Notes: generated from the letters alone by a model not told the origin. DNA of 64,000 nucleotides from Chloroflexota bacterium (GCA_043818215.1 JBDRGC010000023.1:1976-65975); one strand, 5' to 3'. Numbered from the stretch's first letter, positions 6,222 to 60,161 are shown. Made by a program: numbers and translations.

Positions 6222-6551
6222 TCAAGGGGATGAAGCAATTAATGAACGGAGTGCGTCATTCACGGATTCCGAATCAGGGAAATACTTTCGCACGTCTGGC
6301 TCTAACACTATTGTGCCATCTTCTAATCGGAACTGTCGAATGAGTGTTGTTCCATCCTCGTTATGGACTGTGACCGTATGACCTTCGTGATACGCTTTGT
6401 AGTGTTTGCTACGAACCCCGCCACTGAAATCATATTCGGGGCGCATATCATTGAAAATCATCTTTCCTTCGTCAAAGCTGACTTTGTGCTTTCTGAGATT
6501 ATCTTCGGCTTTTTCTTCGTCCCATTCAAATTCGAGTTCCATTATGCTCAT
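6222..6551 (-). CDS. Fusion of the first ~30 aa of a BrnT (DUF497) toxin to a BrnA-like antitoxin; a toxin-antitoxin remnant
   Basis: ELEFEWDEEKAEDNLRKHKVSFDEG is the BrnT N-terminal signature. It is followed directly by RPEYDFSGG...LEPDVRKYFPDSESVNDALRSLI, an antitoxin-type sequence. Confidence 0.5.
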   Translation of the reverse strand: MSIMELEFEWDEEKAEDNLRKHKVSFDEGKMIFNDMRPEYDFSGGVRSKHYKAYHEGHTVTVHNEDGTTLIRQFRLEDGTIVLEPDVRKYFPDSESVNDALRSLIASSP

Positions 6552-8311: not shown

Positions 8312-8318
8312 TAGTGAC

Positions 8319-8564
8319 TTGGTAGATTGGTAGATTGGTAGATTGGTATTTTGGTAGTTGGTAAACAGGTAGATTGGTAATTGGTGATTGGTTACTTGGT
8401 GTTCAGGCAGTGGTCAGCGGTCAGCAGTCGGCGGTCAGCAGTCAACGGTCAGCGGTCAGCGGTCGGCGGTCAGCAGTCAACGGTCGGCGGTCAGCGGTCG
8501 GCGGTCAGCGGTCAGGCGGTCAACCGACCCCTAACTCCTAACCCCTAACCCCTAACTCCCAACC
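8319..8564. repeat. Three concatenated 7-8-nt arrays: GGTAGATT-type, then GGTCAGC/GGTCGGC/AGTCAAC-type, then CCCTAAC-type
   Basis: Read directly. It fills the whole spacer between the rSAM stop and the phosphatidyltransferase start. The rSAM C-terminus (GLGVRG) and its TAG stop are encoded by the CCCTAAC units. Confidence 0.9.
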
Positions 8565-10708: not shown

Positions 10709-10850
10709 TCGAAGTGTCGGCTGAACCAGTCCACACTTCGACAAGCTCTGTGCAAGCTCCGGTGGACTTCGTGCATTTCGTTGCTGTGACTTTCGCGCAG
10801 CATCCCGTGCGTAGCCTACCCGCAGGGTGCGAAGGGGGACAGTCGCCGGA
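10709..10850 (+). repeat. Dispersed ~150-nt element, copy B
   Basis: Aligns base-for-base with 2951-3118 apart from a few substitutions and one indel. Confidence 0.8.
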
Positions 10851-12610: not shown

Positions 12611-12867
12611 AGAGGCCTCCGTGAAGACGTGAAACGTGATCCCGAAAGAACATCGGGACGATGTGCGTGACGAGTGAAGCGTGGGGCGTGGAGCGTGAAG
12701 TGGCGACTCATATTGTAATCATTCAGTCCGTGGTGAAAGCTACTTGAATAGAACACGGACACTTGCACCTGCGGCATACTTATGCAGGCACTGCGCACTT
12801 GCACCTGCGGCAAGTGTCCGCGTTCTATTTTACCAGGGAACTGAATGCTTACCTCACATTTCACGCA

Positions 12868-13239
12868 TTACCATTTCGGTTCTTCCGTCAATTGATAGGT
12901 CGTGTTGCAGTAAGGGCAGCTGACTACCGGGGCGCCGGCCACCATTTTGATATTGTCCAGGGTGAGTGCGCCCCCGCAGGATTGACATTTCATTGTGTCC
13001 AGGCTGACATCGCCGGGCAAGTCGATTTTCAGGGTCACGTCGCCCCCCTCCCCCCCCGCGGCGGTTGGCTGGCGGCGGCTGGCGAACCAGATCACGCCGA
13101 AGCCGATCCCCACGCTGATGACACCAACCACTAGCCACCCAAGCTGCCCATCAGGGCTGAATGTAGCCCAGATGAACAGCACGCCAAAGAATATCAGAAT
13201 AGCTGCAAAAATATAAGCGATGATTTTTCCTGCTGACAT
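12868..13239 (-). CDS. Small membrane protein with a C-terminal zinc ribbon
   Basis: Two hydrophobic helices, then CQSCGG...CPYCN. Confidence 0.5.
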   Translation of the reverse strand: MSAGKIIAYIFAAILIFFGVLFIWATFSPDGQLGWLVVGVISVGIGFGVIWFASRRQPTAAGGEGGDVTLKIDLPGDVSLDTMKCQSCGGALTLDNIKMVAGAPVVSCPYCNTTYQLTEEPKW

Positions 13240-13278
13240 AAGAACCTCCGTTGATTGCTAAACAAATCGAAAATGCTG

Positions 13279-13974
13279 TTAAAAAATTCCTGAAATTTGA
13301 CTCTGAGTTTCGTCGTCCGAGGCGCTGATTTCGATCAGTTCTCCGGTGGCGACGAACACCGTGCGCTCGCAGATATTGGTGACCCGGTCGGCGGCGCGTT
13401 CCAGGTTGTGTGCCACCCACAAAAGGTAAGTTGCCCGGTCGATTGTGGATGGATCGGAAATCATAAAAGTCAGCAGATCTCGGTATACCTGGTTGTACAG
13501 GGCATCAACTTCGTCGTCTTCTTTGGGGATAGCCAGAGCCGACTCTGCGTCCCCAGCCACGAAAGCGCCCAGGGCACGGTGAAGCATATCGGTGGTGAGT
13601 TCTGCCATGCGCGGCACGTCGATTAGTGGTTTGATGAGGGGATCATCTCCCATGCGGATATTGATCAACGCAATCCCTTTGGCGTAGTCGCCCATACGTT
13701 CCAGTTCGCTGGCGATATCCAATACAGATGCCAAAATGCGCAGGTCGCGGGCCATGGGCTGCTGGGTTGCGATGATTATCAAGGCGTCATTTTCGATCTC
13801 GAATCGCTTTTCGTTGATTTGTTTGTCACCTGCGTAAATGCGGCGGGCTGCTTTCAGGTCGCGGCGTTCGAGTGACTCAACGGCGTCCAGAATGGCCTGC
13901 TCGACCATGCTTCCCAGCGCGAGAACTTCGTCGAGCAGTTTTTGTATCTGGCGGTCTAAAGTTTCTCTTGTCAT
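13279..13974 (-). CDS. phoU: Phosphate-uptake regulator PhoU
   Basis: MTRETLDRQIQKLLDEVLALGSMVE...DKQINEKRFEIEND...ELERMGDYAKGIA...LERAADRVTNICE shows the duplicated PhoU repeats. Start set at the ATG at 13974; the ORF-track extension to 14067 has no support. Confidence 0.9.
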   Translation of the reverse strand: MTRETLDRQIQKLLDEVLALGSMVEQAILDAVESLERRDLKAARRIYAGDKQINEKRFEIENDALIIIATQQPMARDLRILASVLDIASELERMGDYAKGIALINIRMGDDPLIKPLIDVPRMAELTTDMLHRALGAFVAGDAESALAIPKEDDEVDALYNQVYRDLLTFMISDPSTIDRATYLLWVAHNLERAADRVTNICERTVFVATGELIEISASDDETQSQISGIF

Positions 13975-14047
13975 ACAGTTTTCCTTCGGTGTGCAGGTTC
14001 TACTAACTGAAACTTCCGACTGTAATAATCTATCGATTTGACTTACT

Positions 14048-14220
14048 CTACCAGGTTTCCTTTCCAACCGGCGCGCCCCAGTTTACTTCTGCCACCTGAT
14101 AATCAGCAGGCATCCGGTGTACCAGGTCTTCAATGCGTACCCGTCTGTGTCTGTGTGGTGAACAGGCTTAGGGAAACGCAGGCCCTGGTTGTGGCCCCAT
14201 TTTTGCACTTTGGTTATCAT
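14048..14220 (-). pseudogene. MazE/AbrB (SpoVT-AbrB) antitoxin remnant, internally deleted and frameshifted
   Basis: Hand translation from the ATG at 14220 (AGGAGA upstream) gives MITKVQKWGHNQGLRFPKPV. A second frame gives RIEDLVHRMPADYQVAEVNWGAPVGKETW*, a typical MazE C-terminus. The span is only about 57 codons and no toxin gene is present. Confidence 0.55.
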
Positions 14221-14496
14221 TGTTTGTCTCCTGGTGTTGGGTGCGCATCCATAGTATATCTTCCATGTATCAAAAATTCAATGCCTTTAATTGCAATCCC
14301 GCTTAAGTCACGCATTACCTGACCGTCGACCACCGACCGCAGACCTTGTGGCGACATATATCTTCAGCTACCCAGTTTTGGCTGTCCGCCCTGCTGTCAA
14401 ATCAAGTGCGACTTTTTCGGTACTGTCTTTATCCTTGATACACAGCAGTATCTTACGCTCTCCGCTCCACCCTCCACACTCCCCGCTCCACTTGAA

Positions 14497-15252
14497 CTAC
14501 CCAAACCGCCCCTCGACGTAATCCTCTGTGCGCTGGTCTTGGGGATTGGTGAAGATATCTTTACCCGGCGCGTATTCGATCAATTCTCCTTGCAGTAAGA
14601 AGGCCGCGCTATCGGCGGTGCGGGCAGCTTGCTGAACTGAGTGTGGAACCAGCACGATGGTGTAATCTTTTTTCAATTCTTGCAGCGACTCTTCGACTTT
14701 GCCGGTGGAGATCGGGTCCAGCCCGGAGGTGGGCTCGTCCAGCAGAATCACCTCCGGCTCCAGGGCCAGGACGCGCGCCAGACACACTCGCTGCTGCTGT
14801 CCGCCGGAGAGGGCCACCGCGGGGTCGTCCAGCCGGTCGTTGACCTCGTCCCACAGAGCGGCCTGTTTCAAACTGCGCTCCACAGCTTCGTCCAAGCGGT
14901 ATCTGTCTCGCTCACCGGCCACTTCCAGCCCGTAAGTCAGGTTTTGGCGGATGCTCATCGGCAGCACCACCGGTCGAGCGAAAACCATGCCCACCCGGCG
15001 GCGCAGGGCGATGACATCGGTTTCGGGATCGAGAATATTCTCACCATCCAGCAGCACGCGCCCATCCAGGCGAACCACATCCGCTAAGTCATTCAAGCGA
15101 TTCAGAACCCGCAGCAGGCTGGATTTACCGCCCCCCGCCGGGCCGAACAGCACCGTGATCTCATTGGCCGGAATCGCCATGCTGATATTTTGCAGGGATT
15201 CAGTGCCGTCGGAGTAGTGGAGAGTGAGGTGTTCGATAGTGATTTTGTTCAT
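14497..15252 (-). CDS. pstB: Divergent PstB-like phosphate ABC ATPase
   Basis: MNKITIEHLTLHY..GPAGGGKSSLLRVLNRLNDL..LSGGQQQRVCLARVLA..ILLDEPTSGLD. Start is the ATG at 15252. The 526-aa ORF in the track is an artefactual extension running through pstA. Confidence 0.85.
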   Translation of the reverse strand: MNKITIEHLTLHYSDGTESLQNISMAIPANEITVLFGPAGGGKSSLLRVLNRLNDLADVVRLDGRVLLDGENILDPETDVIALRRRVGMVFARPVVLPMSIRQNLTYGLEVAGERDRYRLDEAVERSLKQAALWDEVNDRLDDPAVALSGGQQQRVCLARVLALEPEVILLDEPTSGLDPISTGKVEESLQELKKDYTIVLVPHSVQQAARTADSAAFLLQGELIEYAPGKDIFTNPQDQRTEDYVEGRFG

Positions 15253-15261
15253 GGATAATTG

Positions 15262-15349
15262 ACCACTGACCGCCGACAGCCGACCGCTGACCGGCCGACC
15301 ACCGACCGCTGTCGGCTGTCGGCCGTCGGCCGTCGGCTGTCGGCGGTCA
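15262..15349. repeat. Heptamer hairpin (GCCGACC-type arm paired with GGTCGGC-type arm) filling the pstA-pstB spacer
   Basis: gaccgccgacagccgac ... gtcggctgtcggcggtc form perfect 17-bp outer arms. The array ends 4 nt from the pstA stop. Confidence 0.9.
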
Positions 15350-15353
15350 TATT

Positions 15354-16214
15354 TCACCACTGCCTGCGCGCCCGCGCCCGCGAGCGAATACTCGAGGCGA
15401 TGAAATTCATACTCAACACAAAGCCAAGCAGCACCAAAGCCGTGCCGTACTGAATTTTGATGGGCATCCCCGGCACCTGGGTGGAGATCACGAAGAGGTG
15501 GTAGGGCAAGGCCATGGTCGCGTCCAGCGGGGAGTTGGGCAGTCGTGGCAAGAAGAAAGCTGCCACCGTGAACAGGATAGGGGCGGTCTCGCCAGCGGCC
15601 CGTTCCAACCCCAAAATCACACCTGTCAGGATGCCGGGCAACGCTTGGGGCAGCACAATCCGGCGGATGGTTTGCCAGCGCGTGGCCCCCACGGAGATGC
15701 TCACGGTGCGAAAAGCCTGCGGGACTGCTCGCAAGGCTTCCTCCGCGGTGCTGATGATTATCGGCAGAGTCATGATCGACAGAGTCAATGATCCAGCTAG
15801 AATGCTGGTGCCAAATTGCAGGAATAGCACAAACAATCCCAACCCGAACAAACCGTATACCACTGATGGAATTCCAGCCAGACTGATGATGGCGATGCGG
15901 ATCAGGCGTGTCCAGCGGTTTTCGGGGGCGTATTCCGAGAGATAGATGGCAGCCCCGATTCCCAGGGGGACTGCGAAGATCGCTGTGCCCAGGGTCAGGT
16001 AGAAGGTTCCTACGATGGCCGGCCAGATACCGCCGGCGCGCATACCCTCGCGGGGGTAGCCAGTGATGAACTCCCACGAAATCGCCGGCGCCCCCAGCAC
16101 GAGGATATAGATCACCACCGCCACAATGGGGATAACAGTCAGCAATGTCGTCACAGTCAACAGGCTGAAACCGATGCGTTGGGTGAGGTGGCGGGATGTG
16201 GAAGTTTTTGTCAT
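15354..16214 (-). CDS. pstA: Phosphate ABC transporter permease PstA
   Basis: 286 aa, polytopic, with an EAA-type loop. Its position follows pstC. Confidence 0.9.
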   Translation of the reverse strand: MTKTSTSRHLTQRIGFSLLTVTTLLTVIPIVAVVIYILVLGAPAISWEFITGYPREGMRAGGIWPAIVGTFYLTLGTAIFAVPLGIGAAIYLSEYAPENRWTRLIRIAIISLAGIPSVVYGLFGLGLFVLFLQFGTSILAGSLTLSIMTLPIIISTAEEALRAVPQAFRTVSISVGATRWQTIRRIVLPQALPGILTGVILGLERAAGETAPILFTVAAFFLPRLPNSPLDATMALPYHLFVISTQVPGMPIKIQYGTALVLLGFVLSMNFIASSIRSRARARRQW

Positions 16215-16239
16215 TAAAGTTTCTCGAGAGTGATGCGTG

Positions 16240-16430
16240 AAAGTCAGTAGATCAGTAGATCAGTAAATCAGTAGATCAGTAAACCAGTAGATCAGTAAAC
16301 CAGTAGATCAGTAAACCAGTAGATCAGTAAACCAGTAAACCAGTTCTCCTGATCCCTAGTCCCTGATCCCTGATTTACTGATTCCTGATCTACTGATTTA
16401 CTGATTCCTGGTTTCCTGATTCCTGATTCC
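16240..16430. repeat. Octamer/heptamer hairpin (CAGTAGAT/CAGTAAAC arm against CTGATTTA/CTGATCC arm) filling the pstC-pstA spacer
   Basis: The left arm has about 12 units of 8 nt. The right arm is partly complementary (aatcagtaaatcagtagatcagg). It ends 1 nt before the pstC TAA. Confidence 0.9.
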
Positions 16431-16431
16431 T

Positions 16432-17328
16432 TTACGAAAGTATGCGCTCCGCTCGCTTGCGCTGCTTGAAAACTACTGCCGAAGCTGTCACGTTGACGAA
16501 CAACGAAATCAAGAATAGCACCACGCCAATGAAGAAAAGCACGTGGTAGTGGACGCTGCCACTGGCGACCTCGCCCATTTCGGCGGCGATGGTGGCTGTC
16601 ATCGTGCGGGCGGGGGCGAACAGCGCGCCCAATCCCGTGGGCAGCATAGCCGCGTTGCCTGTGACCATCATCACGGTCATGGTCTCGCCGATGGCGCGGC
16701 CGACACCCAGCATGACTGCGGTCAGCACCCCGGAGCGGGCCGCGGGCAGTGTCACCCGCCAGATGGTCTGCCACTCGGTGGCTCCCAGCGCCAGGGCAGC
16801 ATCCCGGTAGGATTTGGGCACCGCGTCCAGGGCATCTTCGGCCACGGAAACAACGGTCGGGATGGCAATTCCCCCCAGGAGGATGGCCCCCGCCAAAGCT
16901 GTCAGGCCAGTGGGTAAATCCAGTAGAATCCGCAGGTAAGGGGAGAGCACCAGAATCCCCAAAAATCCCAGCACCACTGAAGGGAGTCCTCCCAGCACTT
17001 CGACCAGGGGTTTGAGCACATCCCGCATCCAGCGGGGCGCAATCTCCGAGATATAAACCGCGCCCCCGATGCCGAAGGGCACTGCGATCAGCGTTGCTCC
17101 AATGGTCACGATCAGCGAGCCGCCGATCAGGGGCAGGATGCCGAAATAGTCTTCGATGGGATACCAGCGGCTGCTGAACAGGGTGCCAAACGAGACCTCG
17201 CCCAGGGTGGGCAGTCCCTCACGGAGCAGGAAATAGAAGATCATCCCCACGAAGACGATGGCGGAATAGCCCGATGCCTTGATCAGGCGGGTGATGATGT
17301 ATTCGCGCCAGTTGAGAGAGCTTTCCAT
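16432..17328 (-). CDS. pstC: Phosphate ABC transporter permease PstC
   Basis: 298 aa: ...GILPLIGGSLIVTIGATLIAVPFGIGGAVYISEIAP... Confidence 0.9.
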   Translation of the reverse strand: MESSLNWREYIITRLIKASGYSAIVFVGMIFYFLLREGLPTLGEVSFGTLFSSRWYPIEDYFGILPLIGGSLIVTIGATLIAVPFGIGGAVYISEIAPRWMRDVLKPLVEVLGGLPSVVLGFLGILVLSPYLRILLDLPTGLTALAGAILLGGIAIPTVVSVAEDALDAVPKSYRDAALALGATEWQTIWRVTLPAARSGVLTAVMLGVGRAIGETMTVMMVTGNAAMLPTGLGALFAPARTMTATIAAEMGEVASGSVHYHVLFFIGVVLFLISLFVNVTASAVVFKQRKRAERILS

Positions 17329-17336
17329 GAGAGCCT

Positions 17337-17650
17337 CGTGGAGCGTGGAGCGGGAAGCAGGAAGCGGGAAGCGGGAAGCAGGAAGCAGGAAGCGGGAAGC
17401 GGGAAGCAGGAAGCGGGAAGCGGGAAGCAGGAAGCGGGAAGCGGGAAGTGGGAAGCGGGAAGCAGGAAGCGGGAAGCGGGAAGCGGGAAGCGGGAAGCGG
17501 GAAGCGGGAAGCGGGAAGCGGGAAGCGGGAAGCGGGAAGCGGGAAGCGGATTTTATCCCACTCCGCTACGCTTCGTGGACTACGTTACGCATCACGTTTT
17601 CACGTTTTCACGTCTAACGTCTTCGCGCAGCATCCCCGAAGGGGGGCACG
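17337..17650. repeat. pstS-pstC spacer: (CGTGGAG)x2, (GGGAAGC/AGGAAGC)x28, core atcccactccgctacgcttcg, CGTGAAA-type units, and motif cttcgcgcagcatccccgaagggg
   Basis: The GGGAAGC array spans 17352-17547, which is 196 nt or exactly 28 units by hand count. Confidence 0.9.
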
Positions 17651-17652
17651 TT

Positions 17653-18543
17653 TCACCGAGTTTTTACCGGCACAAAACCTAACTCGGTGACAATCATCTG
17701 CGCCTCGGGGGAGAGAATCCAATTCAAGTATGCTTCGATGGCTCCGCTGGGTTCGCCGTCGGTGTACATATACAGATCGCGGGCGATGGGGTATGCGCCG
17801 CTGTCGACGGTCTCAGCCGCGGGGTAGATATAAGGGCCGCCGGCTTTTCGCGCTACGGCGACAACTTTCATATCGTGGGTGACGTAGCCCAGGCCGTCGT
17901 AGCCGATGGCGTTGGGGTTTTGCCGGATTTCGACGCTGATGCCCTCAGATGATGGCAGCAGCAATGTGCTTGGGGAAAACAGGGTCTGGTTCTCTTTATC
18001 GCCCAGGCGGAGCACCTGTTCGAGGAAATAAACGTGGGTGCCCGAATTGGTCTCGCGCGAGAGCCGCACAATGGGGCGGTCATCCCCGCCAACCTGACTC
18101 CAGTTGTCTATCTTGCCGCTGTAGATATCGGAAATCTGCTCAAGGGTGAGTTCGTCAACCGGATTGTCGAGATTGACGATCACCGCGATGGCGTCGCGGG
18201 CGATGACGAATTCCACCGGGTCTGTCCCGTTGGACTGGGCGGCTGCAATCTCTTCGGGCTTGATCTGCCGGGAGGCGTTGGCGATATCCACCGTGCCGTT
18301 GATCAGCGCAGCGATACCTGTCCCGGAGCCGCCCCCGGTGACCGAGATGCGCACTTCGGGGTGCAGTTCCTGATAGCGCTCAGCCCAGGCCAGCGCCAGG
18401 TTGACGATGGTATCGGAGCCTTTATTTTCGATTGTATCAACGGTGGAGGGGGAAACGTTCCCATCAGAGGAGGCTGACGGTGGGTTGCATCCTGCCAAAA
18501 ACAGGAGCAGTACTAACAGGATAACCAAACGAATTTGTTTCAT
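17653..18543 (-). CDS. pstS: Phosphate-binding lipoprotein PstS
   Basis: MKQIRLVILLVLLLFLAGC lipobox, and GSDTIVNLALAWAERY..VTGGGSGTGIAALINGTVDIANASR. Start taken at the ATG at 18543. Confidence 0.85.
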   Translation of the reverse strand: MKQIRLVILLVLLLFLAGCNPPSASSDGNVSPSTVDTIENKGSDTIVNLALAWAERYQELHPEVRISVTGGGSGTGIAALINGTVDIANASRQIKPEEIAAAQSNGTDPVEFVIARDAIAVIVNLDNPVDELTLEQISDIYSGKIDNWSQVGGDDRPIVRLSRETNSGTHVYFLEQVLRLGDKENQTLFSPSTLLLPSSEGISVEIRQNPNAIGYDGLGYVTHDMKVVAVARKAGGPYIYPAAETVDSGAYPIARDLYMYTDGEPSGAIEAYLNWILSPEAQMIVTELGFVPVKTR

Positions 18544-18597
18544 CAGCGCGGGATTATAGCCGTAAATCATGGCGTGGGCAAGTGTGGGAGGGCGGGG

Positions 18598-18773
18598 GCT
18601 AGAGGGTAGAGGGCAGAGGGTAGAGGGTAGAGGGGTTAGGGATCAGGGACTAGGGACAAGGGATCAGGCAGCCTAATATACTATATACTGGCTCCTGTCC
18701 TGGTTCCTGGTTCCTAGTCCCTGGTTCCTGGTTTCCTAGCCCCTGGTTCCTAGCCCCTAGTTCCTGGTTCCTG
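18598..18773. repeat. Large imperfect palindrome of heptamers (TAGAGGG, TCAGGGA/CTAGGGA against CCTGGTT/CCTAGTC) with the AT-rich loop taatatactatatact
   Basis: It occupies nearly the whole divergent pstS / pstB2 control region. Confidence 0.85.
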
Positions 18774-18775
18774 AG

Positions 18776-18781
18776 TATAAT
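18776..18781 (+). promoter_or_regulatory. Candidate -10 hexamer TATAAT, 7 nt upstream of the pstB2 ATG (possible leaderless mRNA)
   Basis: Sequence is gagTATAATcagtgccATG. There is no SD and no convincing -35. Confidence 0.3.
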
Positions 18782-18788
18782 CAGTGCC

Positions 18789-19556
18789 ATGAGCGATACA
18801 CACCCCATCTTCACCATCCGAGACCTGGACTTTTACTATGGCGATTTCCTGGCCCTGAGCCAGATCAATATGGACATCCAGCCCCAAAGAGTGACCGCAC
18901 TGATCGGCCCCTCTGGATGCGGCAAATCTACATTTTTGCGCTGCCTGAACCGCATGAATGATACTATCCCAGGGACGCGCGTAGAGGGGCAGATTCTGCT
19001 GGATGGGGATGATATCTACGCCCCCGATGTGGACCTGGCCTCCCTGCGCCAACGGGTGGGGATGGTGTTCCAGAAGCCCAATCCCTTCCCCCAGTCGATC
19101 TATGATAATGTAGCCTTCGGCCCGCGAGTGCTGGGTCTGACCCGCGAGCGCACCGAATTGGACGCCATCGTCGAGCGCAGCCTGCGCCGCGCCGCGGTGT
19201 GGGAGGATGTCAAAGACCTGTTGCGCGAAGACGCCTTGAGCATTTCACTGGGGCAGCAGCAACGACTGTGCATCGCGCGCGTATTGGCTGTCGAAGCTGA
19301 AGTCATCCTGATGGACGAGCCAGCCTCGGCTTTAGACCCCATCGCTACCGGCCAGATCGAAGAATTGATCCACGAGTTGAAACAGCGCTACACCATCGTC
19401 ATCGTTACTCACAATATGCAGCAAGCCGCGCGCGTTTCTGATCTCACCGGATTATTCTGGCTGGGGAAGTTGGTGGAGTTCAATCCTACAGAGCAGTTAT
19501 TTACTAATCCCGAGAGTGATCTGACGGAGGCCTACATCACAGGGAGGATGGGGTGA
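18789..19556 (+). CDS. pstB: Canonical phosphate import ATPase PstB
   Basis: [73 protein letters not shown]. Confidence 0.9.
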
Positions 19557-19712
19557 TTCTTGAGCAGGGGAGCGGGGGGGCTGGGAGACACAAAAACAGA
19601 AATATCTCCCCCAGACTTGTCCTGCGAAGTCCCCGACCAAAGGGAGTGGGGAGCGTGTCGAAGGGATTGGGGGCCGGGGGGCTTTCCCAGGCAAGCCTGA
19701 ATACTTACCCGG

Positions 19713-19752
19713 AGGCAGACCTCCGAGGTCTTCGGAGACCTCGGAGGTCTGC
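19713..19752. repeat. Perfect 17-bp stem hairpin ggcagacctccgaggtc-ttcgga-gacctcggaggtctgcc
   Basis: Read directly. It lies in a 350-nt repeat-rich spacer that also holds a ctctgcg..ccgcggt inverted repeat (19803-19878). Relatives of that inverted repeat are at 45988-46052 and 46318-46352. Confidence 0.8.
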
Positions 19753-19920
19753 CCAAAACGAAGTAGGAGTTACGCACTTAGACAGAACCAGGTCAATTTT
19801 TACCGCAGAGCACGCCAAGAACGCTGAGTTTTGCGCTGTTTTAGTATTTCTCTGCGCTCTTCGCGTTCTCCGCGGTAAATTTGATCTCAACTACGTAAGT
19901 CCTGACGAAGGATGCGCCCT

Positions 19921-21372
19921 ATGAAACGCCTGCATTGGTACGACTATATCACGATCAATATTTACTGGCTGGGCCTGGCAACGGTATCTCAAACCAACGG
20001 CTTGATCCAACCCCTGATGATCCAAAGATTCGTCGGCCCTGAGGGGCAGGGAACCGCGTATGGCAATTTGCGCCTCTACACCCTGATGGCCGCTTTGCTG
20101 GCTCAGGCACTGGCAGGTATGCTCTCGGATCGCAGCACACTTCGACTGGGGCGGCGGCGGCCTTTCATTATAGTGGGCACCCTGCTGAACATGGGCTGCA
20201 TCATCGCCATTGGGGCTTCCCCAACATATTGGTTCCTCTTTCTGGCGGCGGTGTTCTCACAGATGGCCTCCAATATTGCCCACGGCGCCGAGCAGGGTCT
20301 CATCCCCGATTTAGTGCCAGAAGACCGCCGCGGCCGCTTTTCTGGTGTGAAGTCGGTTATGGAGTTGCTGCCAGTCATCATCGTTGCGCTCACGGTTGGC
20401 AGCCTGATAGCCAAAGGCATGATGTGGGCCGGCATCCTGGTAGCCATCGGCATTCTGTTTGTCAGTATGTTGATAACAATGCTCGTGCGTGAAGAGCCGT
20501 TAAAAGAAGCCCCTGAACCATTAGATTGGCAATCCTTTGGACGACTGGTAGCCATGACCCTGGTCTTTTTGGCGGTTATCCTGGGGTCGGGAGCACTTGT
20601 TAGATCGGTGGGTAACTTGCTCACCGGCGTAAGCTCTTTATCCGTTCACCTGGTCGTGATGGGCATTGTCGGACTGCTGGGGATGGTGATCGCCGTTGTT
20701 GTCGGCGTATGGGGCAGCGTGCGCATCGGCCTCGGGGGAGATGCAGCCCGGCGGCATCCGTCTTTCTCGTGGTGGGTGATCAACCGGCTGGCATTTCTCG
20801 TCGGGGCCACGAACCTCGCCGCTTTTGCGATTTACTTCCTCCAGGCCCGGCTGGGGCTGGAAGGCGACGCAGCCGCGGGGCCAGCTTCGAAATTATTGAT
20901 GATTGTAGGCGTTCTGGTCTTATTATTCGCCCTGCCCAGCGGATGGCTGGCGGACAAGATTGGCCGCAAGCGATTGGTAGCCCTAAGCGGAATTGTGGCC
21001 GCCATCGGTACGCTGGTGCTCATCCTATCGCCTGACATGACTATGATCTACGTTGGCGGGTGTATCGTCGGCGCCGCCATTGGTACATTCTTCACGACCA
21101 ACTGGGCGCTGGGCACGGATATAGTCCCCAAAGCGGAAGCTGGCCGCTACTTGGGCGTCTCCAACCTGGCCGGAGCGGGAGCCGGCGCCGTAGGAGCTTA
21201 TATCGGAGGCCCCATCGCCGATTACTTCACCGCCCACGTCCCCCAGGCGCCAGAGACAGGATATTTACTCATCTTTGGGATTTACGGCGTTTTGTTCCTG
21301 CTCTCCTCGATTGTGTTGATGCGAGTGCAAGAGCCAGAGCGATTACTCGAAAAAATATGCCCACAAAACTAA
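19921..21372 (+). CDS. MFS transporter (GPH-like)
   Basis: About 12 hydrophobic segments, and LSDRSTLRLGRRRPF after TM2. The ATG at 19921 has GAAGGA 11 nt upstream. The ORF track starts at 19912. Confidence 0.75.
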   Translation: MKRLHWYDYITINIYWLGLATVSQTNGLIQPLMIQRFVGPEGQGTAYGNLRLYTLMAALLAQALAGMLSDRSTLRLGRRRPFIIVGTLLNMGCIIAIGASPTYWFLFLAAVFSQMASNIAHGAEQGLIPDLVPEDRRGRFSGVKSVMELLPVIIVALTVGSLIAKGMMWAGILVAIGILFVSMLITMLVREEPLKEAPEPLDWQSFGRLVAMTLVFLAVILGSGALVRSVGNLLTGVSSLSVHLVVMGIVGLLGMVIAVVVGVWGSVRIGLGGDAARRHPSFSWWVINRLAFLVGATNLAAFAIYFLQARLGLEGDAAAGPASKLLMIVGVLVLLFALPSGWLADKIGRKRLVALSGIVAAIGTLVLILSPDMTMIYVGGCIVGAAIGTFFTTNWALGTDIVPKAEAGRYLGVSNLAGAGAGAVGAYIGGPIADYFTAHVPQAPETGYLLIFGIYGVLFLLSSIVLMRVQEPERLLEKICPQN

Positions 21373-22139: not shown

Positions 22140-22280
22140 AACGGTTTTTATCCCACTCCGCTACGCTTCGGGGACGGTGTCACGCATCACGCATCACGCC
22201 TCACCCTCCACGCTCCACCCCTCCCCCCTCCACGCTCCACCCCTCCCCCCTCCCCCCTCCCCCCTCCACGCTTCACCTCA
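22127..22280. repeat. CGTGAAA units, core atcccactccgctacgcttcgggga, then CTCCACG/CCCTCCC arrays between convergent genes
   Basis: Read directly. The stop of the 21357 gene (VRET*) lies inside the cgtgaaacgtgaaacg units. Confidence 0.85.
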
Positions 22281-23995: not shown

Positions 23996-25618
23996 ATGGA
24001 ACCCCATTCAGGTCCGTTTCGTTGGTTCAAGATTTTCACTATTTGTCTCCTATCCCTATTTTTATTCAGTCCGATATTTCAAATTCCTTCCCAGGCCGCG
24101 CCTGAACCATCTCCAGAACAGGCTGTCCAGGCCGTCCAACACGCCTGGGAACTGGCCCAGGAAATCGGGATTTACCACTTCACCACCGATGTGGAGCAGA
24201 CCACATATCCAGCCCCCGCGATTGCCAATGTCGGACGCAGCAGCAGCATCCAAACCTATTATTTAGAGGGGGATGTGGATAGCCCGGCCCAAGCGTTTTA
24301 CATGACCCTGTGGCAGGGAGGCGGCAACGCAGCCACCCAAAAGGACGGGATCGAAATCCGCATGGAGGGTGGTGAAGCCTACGGACGGCCTATCGGCGGT
24401 CTCTGGCAGGAAATCGATGATTTCTCGGGCCTTTTCGCGCCAGGTAGCGACCCGATGGCGTATCTGGCAGGGGCGAAAAATATCACACTCGTTTCAAGCC
24501 ATACACAATACGCATTACGCTATATGTTCGACCTGGACGGCCCGGCCTTCGCGGCCCATATGCGCGATCTGCTTGAAGACCAGCTTCGCCGCTCAGGCGA
24601 ACTACCTCCAGGGTTGAGTCTGGATTCATCCATCCTTTATCGTGAAATGACTGGGCTGGGTGAAATCTGGCTGGATGCCCAGGGTTTGCCGCTGCGCTTG
24701 CTCGTGGACCTGGAAATGCCTGACCCCAAAACCGGGGAGCGAGTCAGCGCCAGGATCAAAACTGATTTTTCCAATTTTGCCCAGCAGCCCGAAACCGCAA
24801 TCGGGTTTATCGCTGAAATCCCCACCTGGGATTGGGGCCTCATCCTGCCCCAGGTTGCATTCTGGGGTCTCTTTTGCAGCGGGATCATCGTATTCGTTCT
24901 TTTCCGCCATTCGCAAAAAGTTTATGCCGCTCTGGTGATTGCACTCATTTTTTCGATGGTGGGCACGCCGCTGCTGCAGAGCGCGCAGGTGGCCGCGTTT
25001 TACGAGACCCAGGAGCAGAAACAACTCGAATTTGAGTCCGCTCAAAATGAACGCGCCGCCAACCAAGAAGCCAGGGATGAGTTGCTTACTTCGAGTTGGG
25101 ATCCGCATCAAAATCCAGTGTTCAGTGATCAGTCTTCAGTCTTCAGTCTCCAGTCTTCAGTCCCCAATCCCCAATCACAAATCTTCAATCTCTCGCGCAG
25201 CATCCCCGACAGGGGGCAATCTCTAATCTCCAATCTCCAAGTCTCGACACCGACCTGGACGGGATTGCCGATGCGGTCGAGCAGGCCCTGGGAACCGAGA
25301 TCAATGACCCGGATACCGATGGTGATACCCTCAACGATGGGGTGGAGTTCTTGCGCCTGGGGACCGATCCGCTCTCCAAAGACAGCGATGGTGACGGGAT
25401 TTTTGATAATGTGGAAGTCACCGGTTTTATGGACGTCAACGGCCTGCACTGGTATTTGGACCCCAACTCGCCTGATACGAACAAGGACAGCCGTATCGAT
25501 ACAGAAGAATGCCATCAACTGGTGGGCCGGAATACTGTTGGCGACCGCAAATGTTCGGATACGGATGGCGACAGCACGCCGGATATTTTTGACCGTGATG
25601 ATGACGGGGATGACGTAG
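23996..25618 (+). CDS. Giant surface protein, segment 1 (signal peptide, globular domain, 2 TM helices); meaningful only to about 25128, then runs out of frame
   Basis: AGGAG lies 7 nt before the ATG. Signal peptide FKIFTICLLSLFLFSPIFQIPSQA. After the heptamer array at 25115 the translation becomes low-complexity, while the next frame carries the TSP3 repeats. Confidence 0.7.
   Translation: MEPHSGPFRWFKIFTICLLSLFLFSPIFQIPSQAAPEPSPEQAVQAVQHAWELAQEIGIYHFTTDVEQTTYPAPAIANVGRSSSIQTYYLEGDVDSPAQAFYMTLWQGGGNAATQKDGIEIRMEGGEAYGRPIGGLWQEIDDFSGLFAPGSDPMAYLAGAKNITLVSSHTQYALRYMFDLDGPAFAAHMRDLLEDQLRRSGELPPGLSLDSSILYREMTGLGEIWLDAQGLPLRLLVDLEMPDPKTGERVSARIKTDFSNFAQQPETAIGFIAEIPTWDWGLILPQVAFWGLFCSGIIVFVLFRHSQKVYAALVIALIFSMVGTPLLQSAQVAAFYETQEQKQLEFESAQNERAANQEARDELLTSSWDPHQNPVFSDQSSVFSLQSSVPNPQSQIFNLSRSIPDRGQSLISNLQVSTPTWTGLPMRSSRPWEPRSMTRIPMVIPSTMGWSSCAWGPIRSPKTAMVTGFLIMWKSPVLWTSTACTGIWTPTRLIRTRTAVSIQKNAINWWAGILLATANVRIRMATARRIFLTVMMTGMT
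25115..25245 (+). repeat. Intragenic array 1: 11 heptamers (TCAGTCT/CCAATCC), a 26-nt core ctcgcgcagcatccccgacagggggc, then 3-4 heptamers (AATCTCC)
   Basis: Hand-indexed. The total is about 128 nt, not a multiple of 3. The break from the frame of 23996 to the frame of 25342 lies here. Confidence 0.85.
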
Positions 25619-28600
25619 CCGACCCGGTTGACATCTACCCAATGGGGATGGTGGATCGAGACGGCCAGCATACTAATGGCAGCAACCCCAATGCGTTTAC
25701 AGATGATCACCCTTTCGAACTCAAGATCGAATCATTGCAAACCGGACTACCGGTCTTCGTTGATTTTCAGCTTCGTCCAGAAAACCCAGACCACCTGACC
25801 TACGCCTTGAATGTCCTGGATTGGCCCAGCGAAGACATCGAGGGCCAGATTCAACATGTCAAACACACGACTTTTGCCAGCGATTTTACCGATGAACAAT
25901 TAACAGGCAATCCCTCCGCGGCCAATGGGGATATGCGCCTGATCCCGATGCTGGAGTTGACGATCTCTGGGGATCATGTTCCTTTTGCCCGCACGAATCC
26001 TGCCATTGATGTGGCAGTCCGCGGGGTAATTTCTGGCACCATTCAACTCGAACAGGCCAGCAGCAACCGGGATAACACCAGCCTCGATTTTTCCTTTGAT
26101 GATCCAGGCCAGGATTACACCGTTAAGATTTACGAGGGCGGTTGTCCTGTCTCAGGCACGCCCGTCAAAACTTACACCAATAGATCGGATGGCGATTCAA
26201 GCACCTGGACTGGCAAAAAAGTCGTTGATTTGGCGAATGGTACTTATGCCCTGACCGTGTCGAATGGCACAGATACCGTTTGTGCTGCGATTGGCAATAT
26301 CATCAACGGCCCTTATATCTACGCCATGATTGATCCGGAACCCCTGCGGCCTTATGGAATCTCGGTTCGGGAGGCCGACCAAAATGGAACCCTGATCGCA
26401 TATATCCCCCTCAACATGGTTCCCGACGAAACCGGGGGCGGGCGAGTAGCCTTCTCGGCCCGGATGGCCTATGAACTGGGAACCGATGCCACCTGGGATC
26501 AGGCCCAGCAGGTCCGCATGGTCTGGATGCTGGAAATGCTGACCGATAGCTGCGATTCGAATGGCTTCGAAGAAGATTGGGCCGCCATGACCCTCAGCGA
26601 CCCCACTTTGGGCATGAAAGCCGGTTCAAAAGACGCCGCCTTCCGCACCTGGTGCAGCCTGCCCGAACACCGCACCCCAGACACCTCTCGGATTGTGCAT
26701 ACTTATGACGATTCCTGGATTCTAACCGGGTTGGCGGTACGGGAAGATCATGGCCTGGATGTGGCCGTGGTTTATGAAGACCCCGCCCAGGGGGATGTGG
26801 CTACCAGCGAAAACCTGTGGCAACTCTCCCGCGGGCTGGCCGCCACCTTCCTGGTGGGCCGTGATTGTGAAGACAACGATGTTACCACTTATCCCGATTA
26901 CGACCCGGATACGGGCAGTTGCAATGATGATACGTATCGCGATATTTCAGTCTACACCAATGGCCCGGATGGGAACACGATCGGGAATACCAATATCTAC
27001 AACCGCTTCGATGCATCCGGCAGCGCGGCCGATGGCGATGACCAGCGCTGGGGCATCCCCAAAGCAGCCTTGCAGGTGGCTCGTTTTCGCTACGACAGCC
27101 AGGATTACGCCACCTATCTGGCGATGACCGAAACCCCGGACATTTTGGAAGCCAACTTCGCCCATACCGACGAACCCACCTTGCTTTTTGCCCGTGAAGA
27201 GCATTACCGCAGCGCCGACCTGGGTGCAGCCTCCAAAAGCGGAAGCGTGTTCACCGTAAATATGGTTTCCAGTAATCAACCGCTGCAAACCGTCACCGGC
27301 CTCAAATGGATGCCTTACGCCTATGATGATGATACCGGCTGGTCGCCTATCCCCATTCGAGAACTTTGGGATGATCTCATCATCCAATATGAAGACACCT
27401 TTGCCCAAACCTACCCGGAGGATACCGAAGCCGCCAACCTGGGGCGGGCCGTGGTGGCCCGTTCTTATTATGTATCCCTGATTCAGGGCCTGGTCCAACA
27501 AGTAGAAATTGGCAGTGACCTGCTCTGGCAACCCGACCTGGAAGGAGAAGCCGACGATTGGGTTTACAGCGTCGAAACTCAATTAGAGTACATCTCATTC
27601 TTTGGTTGGATTTTGGCGGACGTACTCAAGGAGGCCTTTGACACTTATGGAACAAAGTGGCGGTTTATCAACATTAGCGGCTTTTCGGTAGATTCGGGTG
27701 TGCTTAAACCCTGGCAAAGCTTGCTGCCGGTGGAAGAATTTCACGGGGCGCTAGAATCGATTGGCGAGGGGATCAAATCGGCCACCTGGGGGCCGTGGGC
27801 CAGCCTCTTCTCCGGTGGGGTTAAATCCAAAATCGGGGCCGGAATAGCCCTGGCTGGTGCTGTGGCGGTGGTTGGGTTGACGATTTATGGCATCACCCAG
27901 CAGAGCAACGCCCTGGATATCGTCTCGATGGTCATGACAGGCCTGTGGGTCATCCTGGCTATCCAGAATCTAGTCAGCACCGCGGTGCAAGTCATCAAAG
28001 CCGTACAAGAGGCTGGCAGTATGGCGGCCGCGGTCAGCAAAGGCTTATCAGAGGCTACCAGTAATATCAAATCGACCTTCAAAAGCGCCGCGGTCGTCGG
28101 GTTGATCATCAGCGTGGTTGCCACCTGGGCTGCCTTAGGCGCCCAGATTGGCCTGTCGTATGGCCTGGGGGGCGGGATGTCGAGCATTGCCCTGGGGACC
28201 GCCATCGCGGGGGCCATCGCGGCAACTGTGGTCATGGTGATTATGTTCGTTATCGCGGCCATTCCCATCGTGGGACAGATCATCGCCGCTATCATCATGC
28301 TGATCGATGCCGTCGTCAGTCTTTTTTGCACCATCTTTCTGGATGAGGAACAAGCCGAACACCCCGCGGCCGAATGGTTCTGCGGCGGTCTGCAAGGCAT
28401 TGTCACCAAAGCGTTGACCGTGTTGATTTACAGCGGCAATGTGATGGTCGAACTTTACCCCGAAGATTACGACCGGTTAGAGTTTTACGACTTTTTAGCC
28501 GATGATCTGGTTGATCCTGATTTAGGGATTTCAGTGGGGAACAAGGTCAAATACAGCCTCTCGATCACCAACACCATCGATATTGCCCCCTTGCCCGATG

Positions 28601-31600
28601 ATCTCGGAGCGGCCTATCGCTACCAATATAACGATAAACAATTACGCAGTTCTGCTTTCAGTTACGATCTATCGATTACCAATACGGTTGAATTGCACGA
28701 AAATTTAGACCGCTACACCACCACCACCGATTGGGAATACGTGGACGGCGGCAGCGAGGCAGATTGGGGCGATTTCGGCCACACCTGGCACAAAGCTGAA
28801 CCGGTTTACATCAACCGCACCGTCCAGCACCCGGATGGAGTCCCCTTTGAGGTTGCCGGGATCAACCAGAGCGTCCCGCTTTACCTCCTGGAGGGCTGGG
28901 CCGTCCCTTCCCAGAACTGCATCCTGGGGATTTGCACCATCTGGACAGATCGCGGCACCGAAAATTTCAACCTGGGCAGCGGCCTGAAATTCGACGTTTT
29001 CCCGGTCACCCTGGATGAATTCTATACCCTGACATCCAAAGATGGGGGTTACGCTCTCGCCTGGTCACAATCTGGCGATGTCACTTTCCCTCGCCTGGTC
29101 GATGGTGATGGAGACGGCATTCCCTACCCTGTCGATGCCCACGACAATGTTTGGGACAATGACGGCGACGGCCTCTCGGATAGTTTCGAGGTCAAGCTGG
29201 GTTCCAACCCGGATAATAAAGACAGCGACGGGGACGGCCTGCCCGACAACCTGGAATTGATCTCTGAAACCAACCCCCTGCGCACCGACAGCGACGGGGA
29301 TGGATTATCGGATGGTGCAGAAGTCTATCATCAAGATATTACCGATCATGACTCAGATGGCAATTTCACTGAATGGTTGGGGGGCTGGGAATATGGCTAC
29401 AATTTAAAACCCGATGGAACCCTGCAAACCACCTGGGTTTCATCATCCCCAATGAGTACAGACAGTGATGGCGATAGCCTCACAGATTTCCAGGAAAAAA
29501 CCTTTGGATTCAACCCCACCTGGATGTCAAATCCCACTATTTTGACCTTTGAATCCACCATTTCTGAGTCCGATGGGAGCGGCGGTTACACCGATTCGGA
29601 CGGTTTCGCCCTGCCGGGGGATACCCTTTATTACGCCGCCTCCGTGGAGAACGAACTCTACAACCGCTGGGCGCACGGCCTGCTGGATACCGATTTTCCC
29701 GGCGTGCTCGATGATGACGCCATTGACCCTCAACCCTTCCTGCTCTATCCTTTGGAGCAGCAGGTCATCGAGGGTCAGGTGCCCGTGGCGAACACTGCGG
29801 CCTCCGGCGTCTACAACCTGACCCAGACCGCCGGCGCCCTGATCTCCGATTGGGCCGAGCTGGCTTCGGGGGCTGCCCTGTGGTATCCCTTCGAGGATGA
29901 CGCCGCCGCAACCACTTACGCTGACCGCTCCGGGTCGATCCCTCCCGACGACGGCACCTGCTCGAACGCCACTCCGGGGGCGGGCTGCGTCCCCATTAAA
30001 AATGACGGCGTTTATGGCGGAAGCCTCAACTTCGATGGGACTGCCCGCGTTGCCTCAGACTACGATCCTGCGGACAACGCGTTCGCAATTTCATTGTGGT
30101 TCAAAACCACTGAGCCTAATGGCGGCCTGTTAGATACCCAAGGGTTCTGGGATCGCTGGTTGTATCTGTATGGTGGCAACGTCAAGGCCAGAATGTACAA
30201 CGGAGTTTCTCACCAAATCCTGACCAGCGCGCAGACCTACAACGATGGGGATTGGCATCATGTGGTGCATACCTTTGGCGGGTCAGCCGGTGGACAGAAA
30301 CTGTATGTGGACGGGCAGCGGGTCGACAGCGGGAGCTACACCACGGCCAGAGCCAGCACAAACGGGATCCGCCTCGGCTATGCCAATATCAGCGGCATTG
30401 GCTACTTCGACGGCAAAATCGATGATGTTCGACTTTTCGAGCGCGGCCTGACCTTCACAGAAGTGCAGGCAATCTTCGATACGCCCATCCTCGACCTGCG
30501 TTTCAACGAAAGTTCGGGATGGCAGGATTCCTCGCCTTTCGCAAACGATGCCTCTTGCACCGGAACCTGTCCCGATCACGTTGACGGCATCGATGGGCGG
30601 GGGGCCAATTTCAGTGGCAGTCACTATATCACTGTGCCCTCCGATGACAGCCTGAAACTCAACCAGGGCGGCTTTACCATTGGCGTCTGGATTTATCCGA
30701 CCGAATCCCCGGAGTATTGTTACCAGCGTGAGTTTTACAGCCCGCCCTGCGATATCTGGAAACCCCAGCCCCAGGGCATTTTGGGATTCGGCAGCGGGGA
30801 AGACAACGCTTACCCTACCTTACAGCGGGTGGGAAACGCGCTGCGCTTTACCTACGGGGACAAACCCTATTTCACCACCGGCGATGTCCTCCAGCCCAAC
30901 AAATGGAACCATGTGGCCGTGTCCTATGATGGCAGTGCTGTACTCATCTACGTTAACGGTGTGAAAGTCGCCGAAGATTCCACCACCTTCACCACGCCCC
31001 CGCCAGGGACCAAAACCCTGACAGTTGGCCGCAGTGGGACAGCCGGGACCTTCGAAGTCAAGAAAGTTCGCGTTGATGAAGAGGGCGACGGCATCGGGAA
31101 GGCCGAAATGTGTATCGCCTTTCGATCCTACGGCGGTGATTGGCAAACGGTCTTCGACCAGCAGGTGGATGGCGGACTGGTGGATGCATCTTATTTCCCC
31201 CTGCTTTACAATGTCGCCGCTGGCCCCTTCGAGTTCAATACCCTCGCGGATTTACGAGTCTGGGAGGATGATGGCGGGGAACACTGCGTCACGGTTAATA
31301 ATAAAAGTGATTCCGACCCCATAGATGACGGGGATGATGGCATGGGATTCTGGTCATTCCGCACGACGGATGTCAGCAAAGGGTTCGACAAGCTCTATTC
31401 CACCGACCCCACCACGGATCCCTACCGCCACTATGGGTTGATGGGATATTCCGGCGATTCTTCCGGTCATTTCTACATGGTCTACCACAACGACTCGATA
31501 CCCTTCTACGGCAAAATTGATGAGTTGCTGATCTACAACCGCCCCTTCGATGCTGACTCGGTTCTGGATATGTACCAGGCCCAGCGGCTTTCCCTGCACC

Positions 31601-48954: not shown

Positions 48955-49019
48955 GGGGGATCTCCTCTTTGTTTGCTAAATGTGAGGTGAGTCTAATATA
49001 ATTGCACGGGGGCGTCAAC

Positions 49020-49612: not shown

Positions 49613-49615
49613 CCC

Positions 49616-50299: not shown

Positions 50300-50310
50300 C
50301 AGAACGATAT

Positions 50311-60158: not shown

Positions 60159-60161
60159 GAG

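Follow-up and report, generated by a model that had tools for sequence, protein, structure and literature searches.

The question raised by this locus is why the genes of a phosphate operon should lie so far apart. The stretch examined is 64 kb of one Anaerolineales genome (Chloroflexota bacterium, GCA_043818215.1 JBDRGC010000023.1:1976-65975), which we call the window and to which all window counts refer. The operon, pstS-pstC-pstA-pstB-phoU on the minus strand, has spacers of 324, 217, 101, and 522 nt, respectively; an earlier note on this DNA had given the first three lengths correctly and put the last at 520 nt. Every non-overlapping intercistronic gap of the operon is affected by repeats, as is the region upstream of it. 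The explanation that we consider probable is that these gaps were colonised by lineage-specific repeats of two kinds, heptamers resembling short tandemly repeated repetitive (STRR) sequences and mosaic palindromes resembling repetitive extragenic palindromic (REP) sequences and bacterial interspersed mosaic elements (BIME), both of them abundant window-wide, and that the repeats are not a control device specific to phosphate.

That pst operons are normally compact, as the note had stated, holds among 80 Anaerolineales loci recovered via PstA (77-92% identity), where the median spacers in operon order are 24, 8, 10, and ~82 nt and the first three reach maxima of 153, 187, and 131 nt. The three pstSCAB spacers of the present operon are 10 to 27 times the lineage median. 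Metagenome-assembled genomes (MAGs) built from long reads, whose contigs measure 0.15-1.5 Mb, have pst operons just as compact, so the short spacers of the relatives are no artefact of assemblies breaking at repeats. The window's unit families were not found in 1.16 Mb of sequence from these relatives, which carry ~9-fold fewer arrays of the 7/8 type per kb, and in a few of them (loci L041, L026, L001/L003, and L006) the pst spacers contain heptamer hairpins that are not homologous to those of the window.

Within the window, Tandem Repeats Finder (TRF) called 40 arrays with a period of 6-9 nt, 29 of them of period 7, versus 0 in each of 10 dinucleotide shuffles, and 81% of the array bases fall inside the 18% of the window that lies outside a curated set of open reading frames (ORFs); several arrays scored as inside ORFs reflect over-extended ORF starts. 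Arrays occur at ~17 of the 31 same-strand gene junctions, so that finding them at all four pst junctions is a ~0.1 event, or roughly 1 in 10, and none are present where genes overlap or nearly touch (58338-63570; 52214/53956). Many other intergenic regions are also strongly structured, with folding z scores of -4 to -11. The copy numbers of the pst arrays range from 3.9 to 28.7. A different repeat had been claimed for each pst spacer, which is partly so, but the same unit families recur among the pst spacers and at unrelated junctions of the window. GGTCRGC units are found at 1715, 8398, and 15289, a related octamer at 8311 and 16220, TCCTGRT units at 16340 and 18698, GTGGCGA units at 6604, 9846, and 39463, and the GTGGAGC/GTGAAGC/GGGAAGC family at 12667, 17324, 52143, 55809, and 63461, in both orientations at unrelated loci. 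As complete elements, the palindromes of pstC-pstA and pstA-pstB occur just once each in the window; only their unit families recur.

Material from the same species consists of three contigs from two other assemblies (99.1-99.8% identity), and among them the pstC-pstA palindrome (in two contigs) and the palindrome upstream of the operon are identical to ours, as are, base for base, the arrays at 49-56 kb. One arm of the conspecific pstA-pstB palindrome has a deletion of 15 nt (two units), and the remainder still folds at -63.3 kcal/mol, while the GGGAAGC array between pstS and pstC is 133 nt (= 19 x 7, or 19 units) shorter in conspecific contig L081, with ~9 versus 28 units. Overall, two of the three indels over ~21 kb of strain comparison are inside arrays; the strains that differ in this way are 99.3-99.8% identical. 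Judged from these comparisons of sequence, the arrays appear to be recent relative to the age of the lineage and indel-prone, without being hypervariable.

The features of the operon and its surroundings are collected in Table 1.

Table 1. Coordinates of genes, arrays, and other features in and around the pst operon (window positions; + and - are strands)
Feature	Position	Strand	Evidence or remark
45-aa ORF (MITKVQKWGHNQGLRFPK...)	14083..14220	-	gene call in conspecific contigs; promoter-like site 14281->14253
phoU	13279..13974	-	Pfam PhoU x2; TIGR02135 196 bits, cut-off 130
GACCNNC heptamer fragment, ~3.5 units	14320..14345		sequence reading; family of the pstA-pstB arms
Heptamer fragment, 3.9 copies, 6 nt past pstB stop	14465..14491		TRF; mRNA GUGGAGC-type; family of the pstS-pstC array, inverted
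pstB, in-operon copy	14497..15252	-	Pfam ABC_tran; TIGR00972 335.3 bits, slightly below the 343.2 cut-off
pstA-pstB heptamer palindrome	15267..15349		TRF; GACCGCC-type arm versus GCTGTCG-type arm; perfect 18-bp outer arms
pstA	15354..16214	-	TIGR00974 283 bits, cut-off 193
pstC-pstA array palindrome	16244..16431		TRF; octamer arm TCAGTAGA/TCAGTAAA, 12.6 copies, versus 7/8-mer arm TCCTGAT/CTGATTTA
pstC	16432..17328	-	TIGR02138 276 bits, cut-off 196
One-armed heptamer array, 2 GTGGAGC + 28 GGGAAGC-type units	17337..17547		TRF and unit count
Type-1 mini-module TCCCACTCCGCTACGCTTCG(T)GGA, centre of pstS-pstC spacer	17556..17579	+	exact 19-mer repeated in window and metagenomes
TCACGTTT octamer mini-array, 2.8 copies	17592..17613		reverse complement of the GTGAAAC-type left-arm units at 22127
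Stem-loop of CCCC-UUCG-GGGA type, 7 bp, a few nt past pstS stop	17630..17649	-	RNA fold; mini-module form CCC-loop-GGGA-YNNTG
pstS, phosphate-binding protein	17653..18543	-	Pfam PBP_like_2; NCBIfam TIGR02136 267 bits, cut-off 207
Promoter-like TTGCCC-17-TATAAT upstream of pstS	18581->18553	-	promoter scan; ends 9 nt before ATG 18543
Array palindrome between divergent pstS and second pstB	18588..18773		TRF; G-rich heptamers TAGAGGG and AGGGAYC opposite TCCTGGT heptamers
Second pstB paralogue, stand-alone, divergent	18789..19556	+	TIGR00972 380.7 bits, above the 343.2 cut-off

The spacer between pstS and pstC is a mosaic which, starting from pstS, consists of the 7-bp stem-loop, the short TCACGTTT array, the module at its centre, and the large heptamer array. 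The last of these contains exactly 28 in-register units of the GGGAAGC type at 17352-17547, the number given in the note, made up of 21 GGGAAGC, 6 AGGAAGC, and 1 GGGAAGT, with two GTGGAGC units before them. Its module-side half is a run of 11 identical GGGAAGC units and its pstC-side half has a partial higher-order pattern of 21 nt; the template strand here presents 22 GGG tracts separated by 4-nt loops, while the mRNA reads (GCUUCCC)n. Between pstC and pstA, the octamer array CAGTAGAT/CAGTAAAC (12.6 copies) does indeed lie opposite a partly complementary 7/8-mer arm as claimed, and its super-unit is 16 nt long with 97% identity. The GCCGACC/GGTCGGC palindrome reported between pstA and pstB also exists, except that its perfect outer arms measure 18 bp rather than 17. 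The spacer between pstB and phoU is mostly unique sequence in which the array fragments mentioned in the note are present at both positions given in Table 1. The note had placed a mazE remnant here as well, which we could not sustain: the 45-aa ORF gave zero Pfam matches even at E<=10, so that no SpoVT/AbrB-type domain was detected by profile, and the only likeness, found by BLASTP, covers 15 residues at the N-terminus of a MazE query (pairwise E 4e-4). A long-range duplex bracketing pstCAB, formed by the C-rich array of the pstS-pstC spacer and the G-rich heptamers after pstB, was considered and rejected as too weak (-56.5 versus -46.3 +/- 4.4 kcal/mol in shuffles), because any G-rich sequence pairs with the C-rich array.

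The note had also proposed a hairpin in every spacer and a calculation of folding energy to check it, and the outcome is divided. As sense RNA, the pstC-pstA spacer folds at -93.4 kcal/mol (z -10.5) and the pstA-pstB spacer at -76.2 kcal/mol (z -11.3), but the other two behave like shuffles, with z +0.11 for the sense RNA of pstS-pstC (z +1.26 for its plus-strand DNA) and z +0.58 for pstB-phoU. The palindrome at 18588-18773 folds at -111.1 kcal/mol on the plus strand (z -4.9; z -2.2 on the minus strand) and, since it lies upstream of the promoter-like site, is probably outside the pst mRNA. Compared by strand across loci, folding favours the sense strand in 5 cases, the antisense strand in 3, and neither in 1, and there is no consistent preference for the transcribed strand. 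No Rfam family reached its gathering score anywhere in the window; permissive thresholds yielded only generic models of miRNA-precursor hairpins and Chloroflexi-1 (23.6 bits versus a threshold of 80 bits), all of which we rejected. Terminator-like sites, defined as a G+C-rich stem-loop followed by a U tract, number four in 12800-19950 and zero inside any pst spacer. The spacer arrays are not terminators, and transcription from the promoter upstream of pstS most likely reads through all of them.

The position of the arrays relative to the genes is asymmetric. They had been described as beginning or ending within 0-10 nt of the coding ends, which holds mainly for the stop side (1, 6, and 6 nt); on the start side, 9-30 nt are free of arrays, and a GAGG or AAGGA motif is retained upstream of pstC and phoU. 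Window-wide, many arrays touch or overrun stop codons, at distances of 0-6 nt. Abutment on the stop side together with a free start side fits a tolerance that is limited by purifying selection.

The promoter-like site is so placed as to imply a leaderless or near-leaderless pstS mRNA, and there is no Shine-Dalgarno motif before the ATG at 18543. It should be noted that pstS has a second possible ATG at 18570 and is called as a protein of 296 aa in the conspecific contig. Among the two pstB genes, it is the divergent copy and not the one in the operon that better fits the PstB equivalog model (380.7 versus 335.3 bits).

The module at the centre of the pstS-pstC spacer, 24-29 nt in length and of the form TCCCACTCCGCTACGCTTCGGGGA(YNNTNT), deserves separate attention. 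Copies are located at 17556-17579, 22151-22175, 63717-63741, and 63753-63777, and a stretch of 65 nt enclosing the first of them (17532-17596) is found again at 22127, 63693, and 63729. Four exact copies of its 19-mer CCCACTCCGCTACGCTTCG are present in the window versus 0.03 expected, and the 19-mer is also present in at least 120 metagenome contigs (loci L083-L203), where ~4 chance matches are expected in a collection of that size. Among the 19-mer matches listed, GGGA follows in 93 of 124, a T usually precedes, and conservation goes no further. There was a single match in 2.9 million viral contigs, and plasmids of cultured bacteria gave chance-level matches only. Neither Rfam nor a text search of the literature for the module and its siblings by sequence gave a match, the text search returning only unrelated primers. 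Contigs with full-module copies have a GC content of 0.40-0.63, which corrects a wider range of 27-69%. One host contig is Anaerolineales-like, with a NuoF that shares 76-82% identity with named proteins of Anaerolineales or Chloroflexota, and another is Syntrophales-like, with a neighbouring protein 72-84% identical to Smithellaceae or Syntrophales proteins; the module occurs in at least two phyla.

The module behaves as a precise insertion in a host palindrome that is empty in contigs L148 and L135, where it reads ACACCTGCCCT/GGCGGGCGGTGCCAGGG (the stroke marks the insertion point), and filled in 18 copies, which carry ~29 nt at that same point and in some cases further nested modules. This clean comparison of filled and empty palindromes revealed no target duplication. 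The window also has siblings of the module, namely CCCGAAAGAACATCGGGACGATGT at ~12650 and TTACCCTTCGGGCACGATGT at 4679, 23660, and 43203, the latter interrupting one arm of two otherwise symmetric hairpins whose opposite arm is uninterrupted. Because the module has the same orientation as both flanking ORFs in 13 cases and the opposite orientation to both in 13, it shows no polarity at the RNA level. The idea that it always sits in a hairpin loop was moderated, as no more than 16% of its contexts score above the 99th percentile of controls with mismatched flanks. We offer as a tentative and admittedly doubtful proposal that T-CCCACTCCGCTACGCTTCGGGGA-YNNTNT is a very small mobile module which enters the loops and arms of other palindromes and of heptamer arrays at precise points, leaving no target duplication, nests with CCC-loop-GGGA-CGATGT siblings, and is common, in near-identical copies, to Anaerolineales and at least one Syntrophales-like genome, in which case the pst mosaic would be the product of a mobile system, similar to the small dispersed repeats (SDRs), that is widespread in uncultured anaerobes. 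A module that is inserted precisely and occurs across phyla would point to a mechanism of mobility for very small DNA elements, so far discussed only for Nostocaceae, and may attract more attention than the pst arrays.

Two further observations concern the metagenome contigs. In the Syntrophales-like L149 (3200-3560), the module leads a run of hairpin units of 50-60 nt, each ending in CTCATTA and with loops that contain CGCTTCG, the heptamer at the centre of the module. Other small palindromes are common to the window (50300-50539 and 12780-12830) and to metagenome contigs (L112; L085/L086/L120), one of them letter for letter (CACCTGCACTGCACCAAACGCAGTGCGGTGCAAGTG) and another as a type of motif (GTCATTGCGAG...AGCAATCTCC), which points to a repeat vocabulary that may be common across Anaerolineales.

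Several other origins for the pst arrays have to be weighed against colonisation. The function suggested in the note was that of the REP sequences of malEFG, namely selected cis-regulatory RNA structures through which segments of the pst mRNA would differ in stability or processing, with the PstS:PstCAB(:PhoU) ratio being adjusted as a result. Such selection could explain why two spacers have exceptionally stable hairpins on the sense strand, one of which, in pstC-pstA, is 19 kcal/mol more stable there, why a small stem-loop comes straight after the pstS stop codon, and why the pstA-pstB hairpin outlasts a strain-specific deletion (-63 kcal/mol), and the arrays would, in the absence of terminators, be transcribed by read-through. 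However, the decisive position between pstS and pstC lacks a large hairpin, the 3' side of pstS having only the 7-bp stem-loop, whereas the large hairpins lie between genes whose products are required in a fixed ratio (pstC/pstA and pstA/pstB), so that expression would not be expected to differ across them. Furthermore, the arrays are not present in the 80 relatives, the same elements occupy unrelated junctions throughout the window, and the strand asymmetry described above is mixed. The proposed control of the ratio found no computed support, and we regard it as unlikely. A function confined to the 28-unit array would be the formation of G-quadruplexes (G4) on the template strand that attenuate transcription from pstS into pstC, with copy number providing heritable variation similar to that of a contingency locus. 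The G3N4 pattern satisfies the sequence requirement for G4, the related GGGAATC and GGGGAYT repeats form G4 in vitro and are also found inside the pec operon (PMC4692102), and strains differ in copy number (28 versus ~9). On the other hand, this difference is possibly an assembly artefact, arrays of the same family are found in both orientations at unrelated loci, and the remaining pst spacers are not of the G4 type, leaving this analogy only a small chance of being correct.

The arrays might instead have been made by the machinery that moves the modules, as repeated target duplications or footprints of 7-8 bp, such that the spacers would be scars of mobile DNA. In line with this, a 7-nt direct repeat, CACGGAT, borders the type-3 module in two hairpins whose opposite arm is uninterrupted, type-1 modules within arrays have TCACGNNT on either side, flanking direct repeats of at least 6 nt accompany 15% of copies versus 7% of controls, modules adjoin arrays in several metagenome contigs, and array periods cluster at 7, then 8, then 9. 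The comparison of filled and empty sites lacks a target duplication, though, and both instances of CACGGAT belong to duplicates of a single composite element and hence represent one event. Given also that most arrays of the window, those of pstC-pstA and pstA-pstB included, are without a module and that no candidate enzyme was found, an origin as scars has at best a slim prospect. Finally, tandem repeats mis-assemble easily and one conspecific contig ends within the GGGAAGC array, so that the arrays could be suspected of being assembly artefacts. Because the palindromes of pstC-pstA and of the upstream region and the 49-56 kb arrays are found again, base for base, among three contigs of two further assemblies, this is extremely improbable and is effectively refuted for the presence of the arrays; the uncertainty is confined to how many copies the 28-unit array really has.

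Colonisation by lineage-specific repeats therefore remains the explanation that we favour, and several observations weigh against it. Exact cores of 19-65 nt are common to several loci, so that local slippage alone is insufficient. In the pstC-pstA spacer, 13 G-U pairs make the sense fold more stable than the antisense one, and such an advantage is the outcome expected from selection at the RNA level; the palindrome of this spacer is also identical in three assemblies, and some constraint is possible. In a second conspecific contig, compared over 9.9 kb, the seven arrays at 49-56 kb are unchanged in length, and the 133-nt difference in the GGGAAGC array is possibly a collapse in a short-read assembly. 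The census, moreover, covers 64 kb only, and to call the arrays genome-wide is an extrapolation.

The repeats form two layers. The first consists of tandem arrays of 7-nt units, less often 8-9 nt, that often face their own reverse complement and then give very long stem-loops; the second is made up of palindromic mini-modules of 20-30 nt residing within these arrays and palindromes, yielding a mosaic similar to REP/BIME. Arrays may grow and shrink by replication slippage, the arms of a palindrome may be kept alike by intra-strand template switching (quasi-palindrome correction), and unit families may spread between loci by copying. They would persist where they are harmless, namely against stop codons, clear of starts, and outside operons of overlapping genes. 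Translational coupling would be lost across the widened pst gaps, and the RNA duplexes of 36-79 bp modelled at pstC/pstA and pstA/pstB could serve as substrates of RNase III or as barriers to 3'-exonucleases. Any effect of the arrays on the pst mRNA is most likely a by-product.

Elsewhere in the window, repeats have also encroached upon coding sequence. The stop codons at 4836, 6655, 8545, 10934, and 52153 are overrun by arrays, with the result that the last codons of five proteins are repeat units. A GTGGCGA array of ~12 units (39463-39545, 84 nt) lies inside the ORF of a surface protein (25342-40449, 5035 aa), preserves its frame, and translates as VEWRVADGEWRVASGEWRVAGGEWRGGW; in this case the repeat has grown inside a gene, by multiples of three units. 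At the end of this giant ORF (40366-40449) are short arrays of CAGTTTT and TCAGTGG, which coincide with the start of an ORF in another frame (40419-43091; immunoglobulin-like and P-domain), and the two ORFs may be one gene that was split by an array-borne frameshift. The 661 nt between a divergent major facilitator superfamily gene and a FadR-type regulator (48955-49615) fold at -311 kcal/mol (z -11) and contain inverted octamer arrays, GTCAGCGA and ACTCGCCG, on either side of a 181-nt tandem duplication, all of which is identical in a conspecific contig. REP-like palindromes of 72 nt (GGTTTGTAGTAGGGCACGAGAGTGCCC...; 90% identical) are situated upstream of two consecutive genes at 53972-54043 and 55929-56000, with others at 6025 and 47570, and these elements made the mechanical ORFs longer than the gene calls of the conspecific contig. 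A dispersed repeat of 78 nt (94% identical) is found at 2952-3029 and 10709-10786, both in long non-coding stretches. Near arrays there are also a low-GC3 (third-position G+C) gene for an N6/N4 DNA methylase (1805-2764) and an ORF with a sub-threshold match to the N-terminus of the BrnT toxin (6222-6551), which may be mobile or defence-related cargo. A search of contigs for a gene adjoining the arrays at 8312-8544 found nothing.

The operon is a clean natural example of the distance to which selfish or neutral repeat DNA can push the genes of a bacterial operon and still leave all of them intact. Such arrays cause short-read assemblies to break, give rise to spurious ORFs, and alter C-termini, and Anaerolineales MAGs can therefore be expected to under-represent them. 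If the hairpins are processed, the strains would provide natural allele pairs for the study of a polycistronic mRNA, namely 28 versus ~9 units in one spacer and an intact versus a 15-nt-deleted arm in another.

Regarding known systems, the comparison with STRR heptamers that the note had drawn is apt, given the 29 arrays of period 7, the strong excess of arrays over shuffles, and their mostly intergenic location. STRR and long simple sequence repeats (SSR) of Calothrix, Nostoc, Anabaena, Xanthomonas, and Chloroflexus are likewise 7-nt tandems of 2 to ~30 copies in intergenic DNA near the ends of ORFs, and they share with the present arrays the location between co-oriented genes or inside operons, the occasional inverted pairs, and possibly the variation of length among strains (PMC4692102, PMC4679880, PMC6749651). 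Heptamers are described as the commonest class of long SSR in bacteria, with polymerase slippage as the proposed cause (Mrazek 2007, as summarised in PMC4679880). The arrays of GGGAATC in Xanthomonas and GGGGAYT in Nostoc PCC 7120 are intergenic, lie <50 bp from ORF ends, and have up to 26 units; Xanthomonas has ~70 inverted array pairs per genome, and a 26-unit array separates pecE from pecF inside the pec operon (PMC4692102). The note knew of no such description in Chloroflexota, but 22 satellites derived from the heptamer-based (GATAGRA)n have been reported in Chloroflexus aurantiacus (PMC6749651). What distinguishes the window is the number of unrelated unit families in one genome, compared with one to three dominant ones in known cases, the admixture of octamer and nonamer arrays, palindromes in which both arms are built of arrays, and the Anaerolineales host. 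None of the cyanobacterial STRR units CCCCAGT, TTGGTCA, and CAACAGT is in the window's list of TRF consensus units, nor are the window's units known to match other published ones, and to judge by these units the resemblance to STRR would be one of kind and not of sequence. The heptamers shown to form G4 in vitro also lie between co-oriented ORFs (PMC4692102), and the 22 GGG tracts at 17352-17547 match them in having at least four G3 tracts with short loops, while differing in consensus (GGGNATC/GGGGAYT versus GGGAAGC here; Rehm et al. 2015). Units similar to AGGGATC and AGGGACT are present at 18638-18668.

The pst hairpins are similar to REP/BIME in being intergenic, transcribed, palindromic, sometimes intra-operonic, and mosaics of small motifs in varying order. 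REPs are units of ~35 nt with a conserved sequence that exist in hundreds of near-identical copies and are linked to REP-associated tyrosine transposases (RAYT), and REP hairpins inside operons, such as that between malE and malF, can stabilise the upstream mRNA. In contrast, the pst hairpins are locus-specific array palindromes of 80-190 nt without a conserved repeated unit, and on this ground they do not appear to be members of REP/BIME; no RAYT was seen, no search aimed at one having been made. The nearest description known for the module is that of the SDRs, which Elhai and colleagues reportedly described in 2008 (Genome Res 18:1484) and which are said to be hairpin modules of 20-30 nt that insert precisely into other repeats with no evident target duplication, nest, and are often found within tandem heptamers. 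The module of the pst operon resembles them by description, in being a 20-30-nt segment present or absent at the same position of host repeat copies; its host range of Anaerolineales and a Syntrophales-like contig differs, as PMC5861425 reports SDRs from Nostocaceae only, and the SDRs of that family are cited in PMC4390886, PMC5861425, and PMC3116915. Taken together, the pst arrays belong to a known kind of repeat, of which they are an unusually dense example with several unit families, from a bacterial order new to it.

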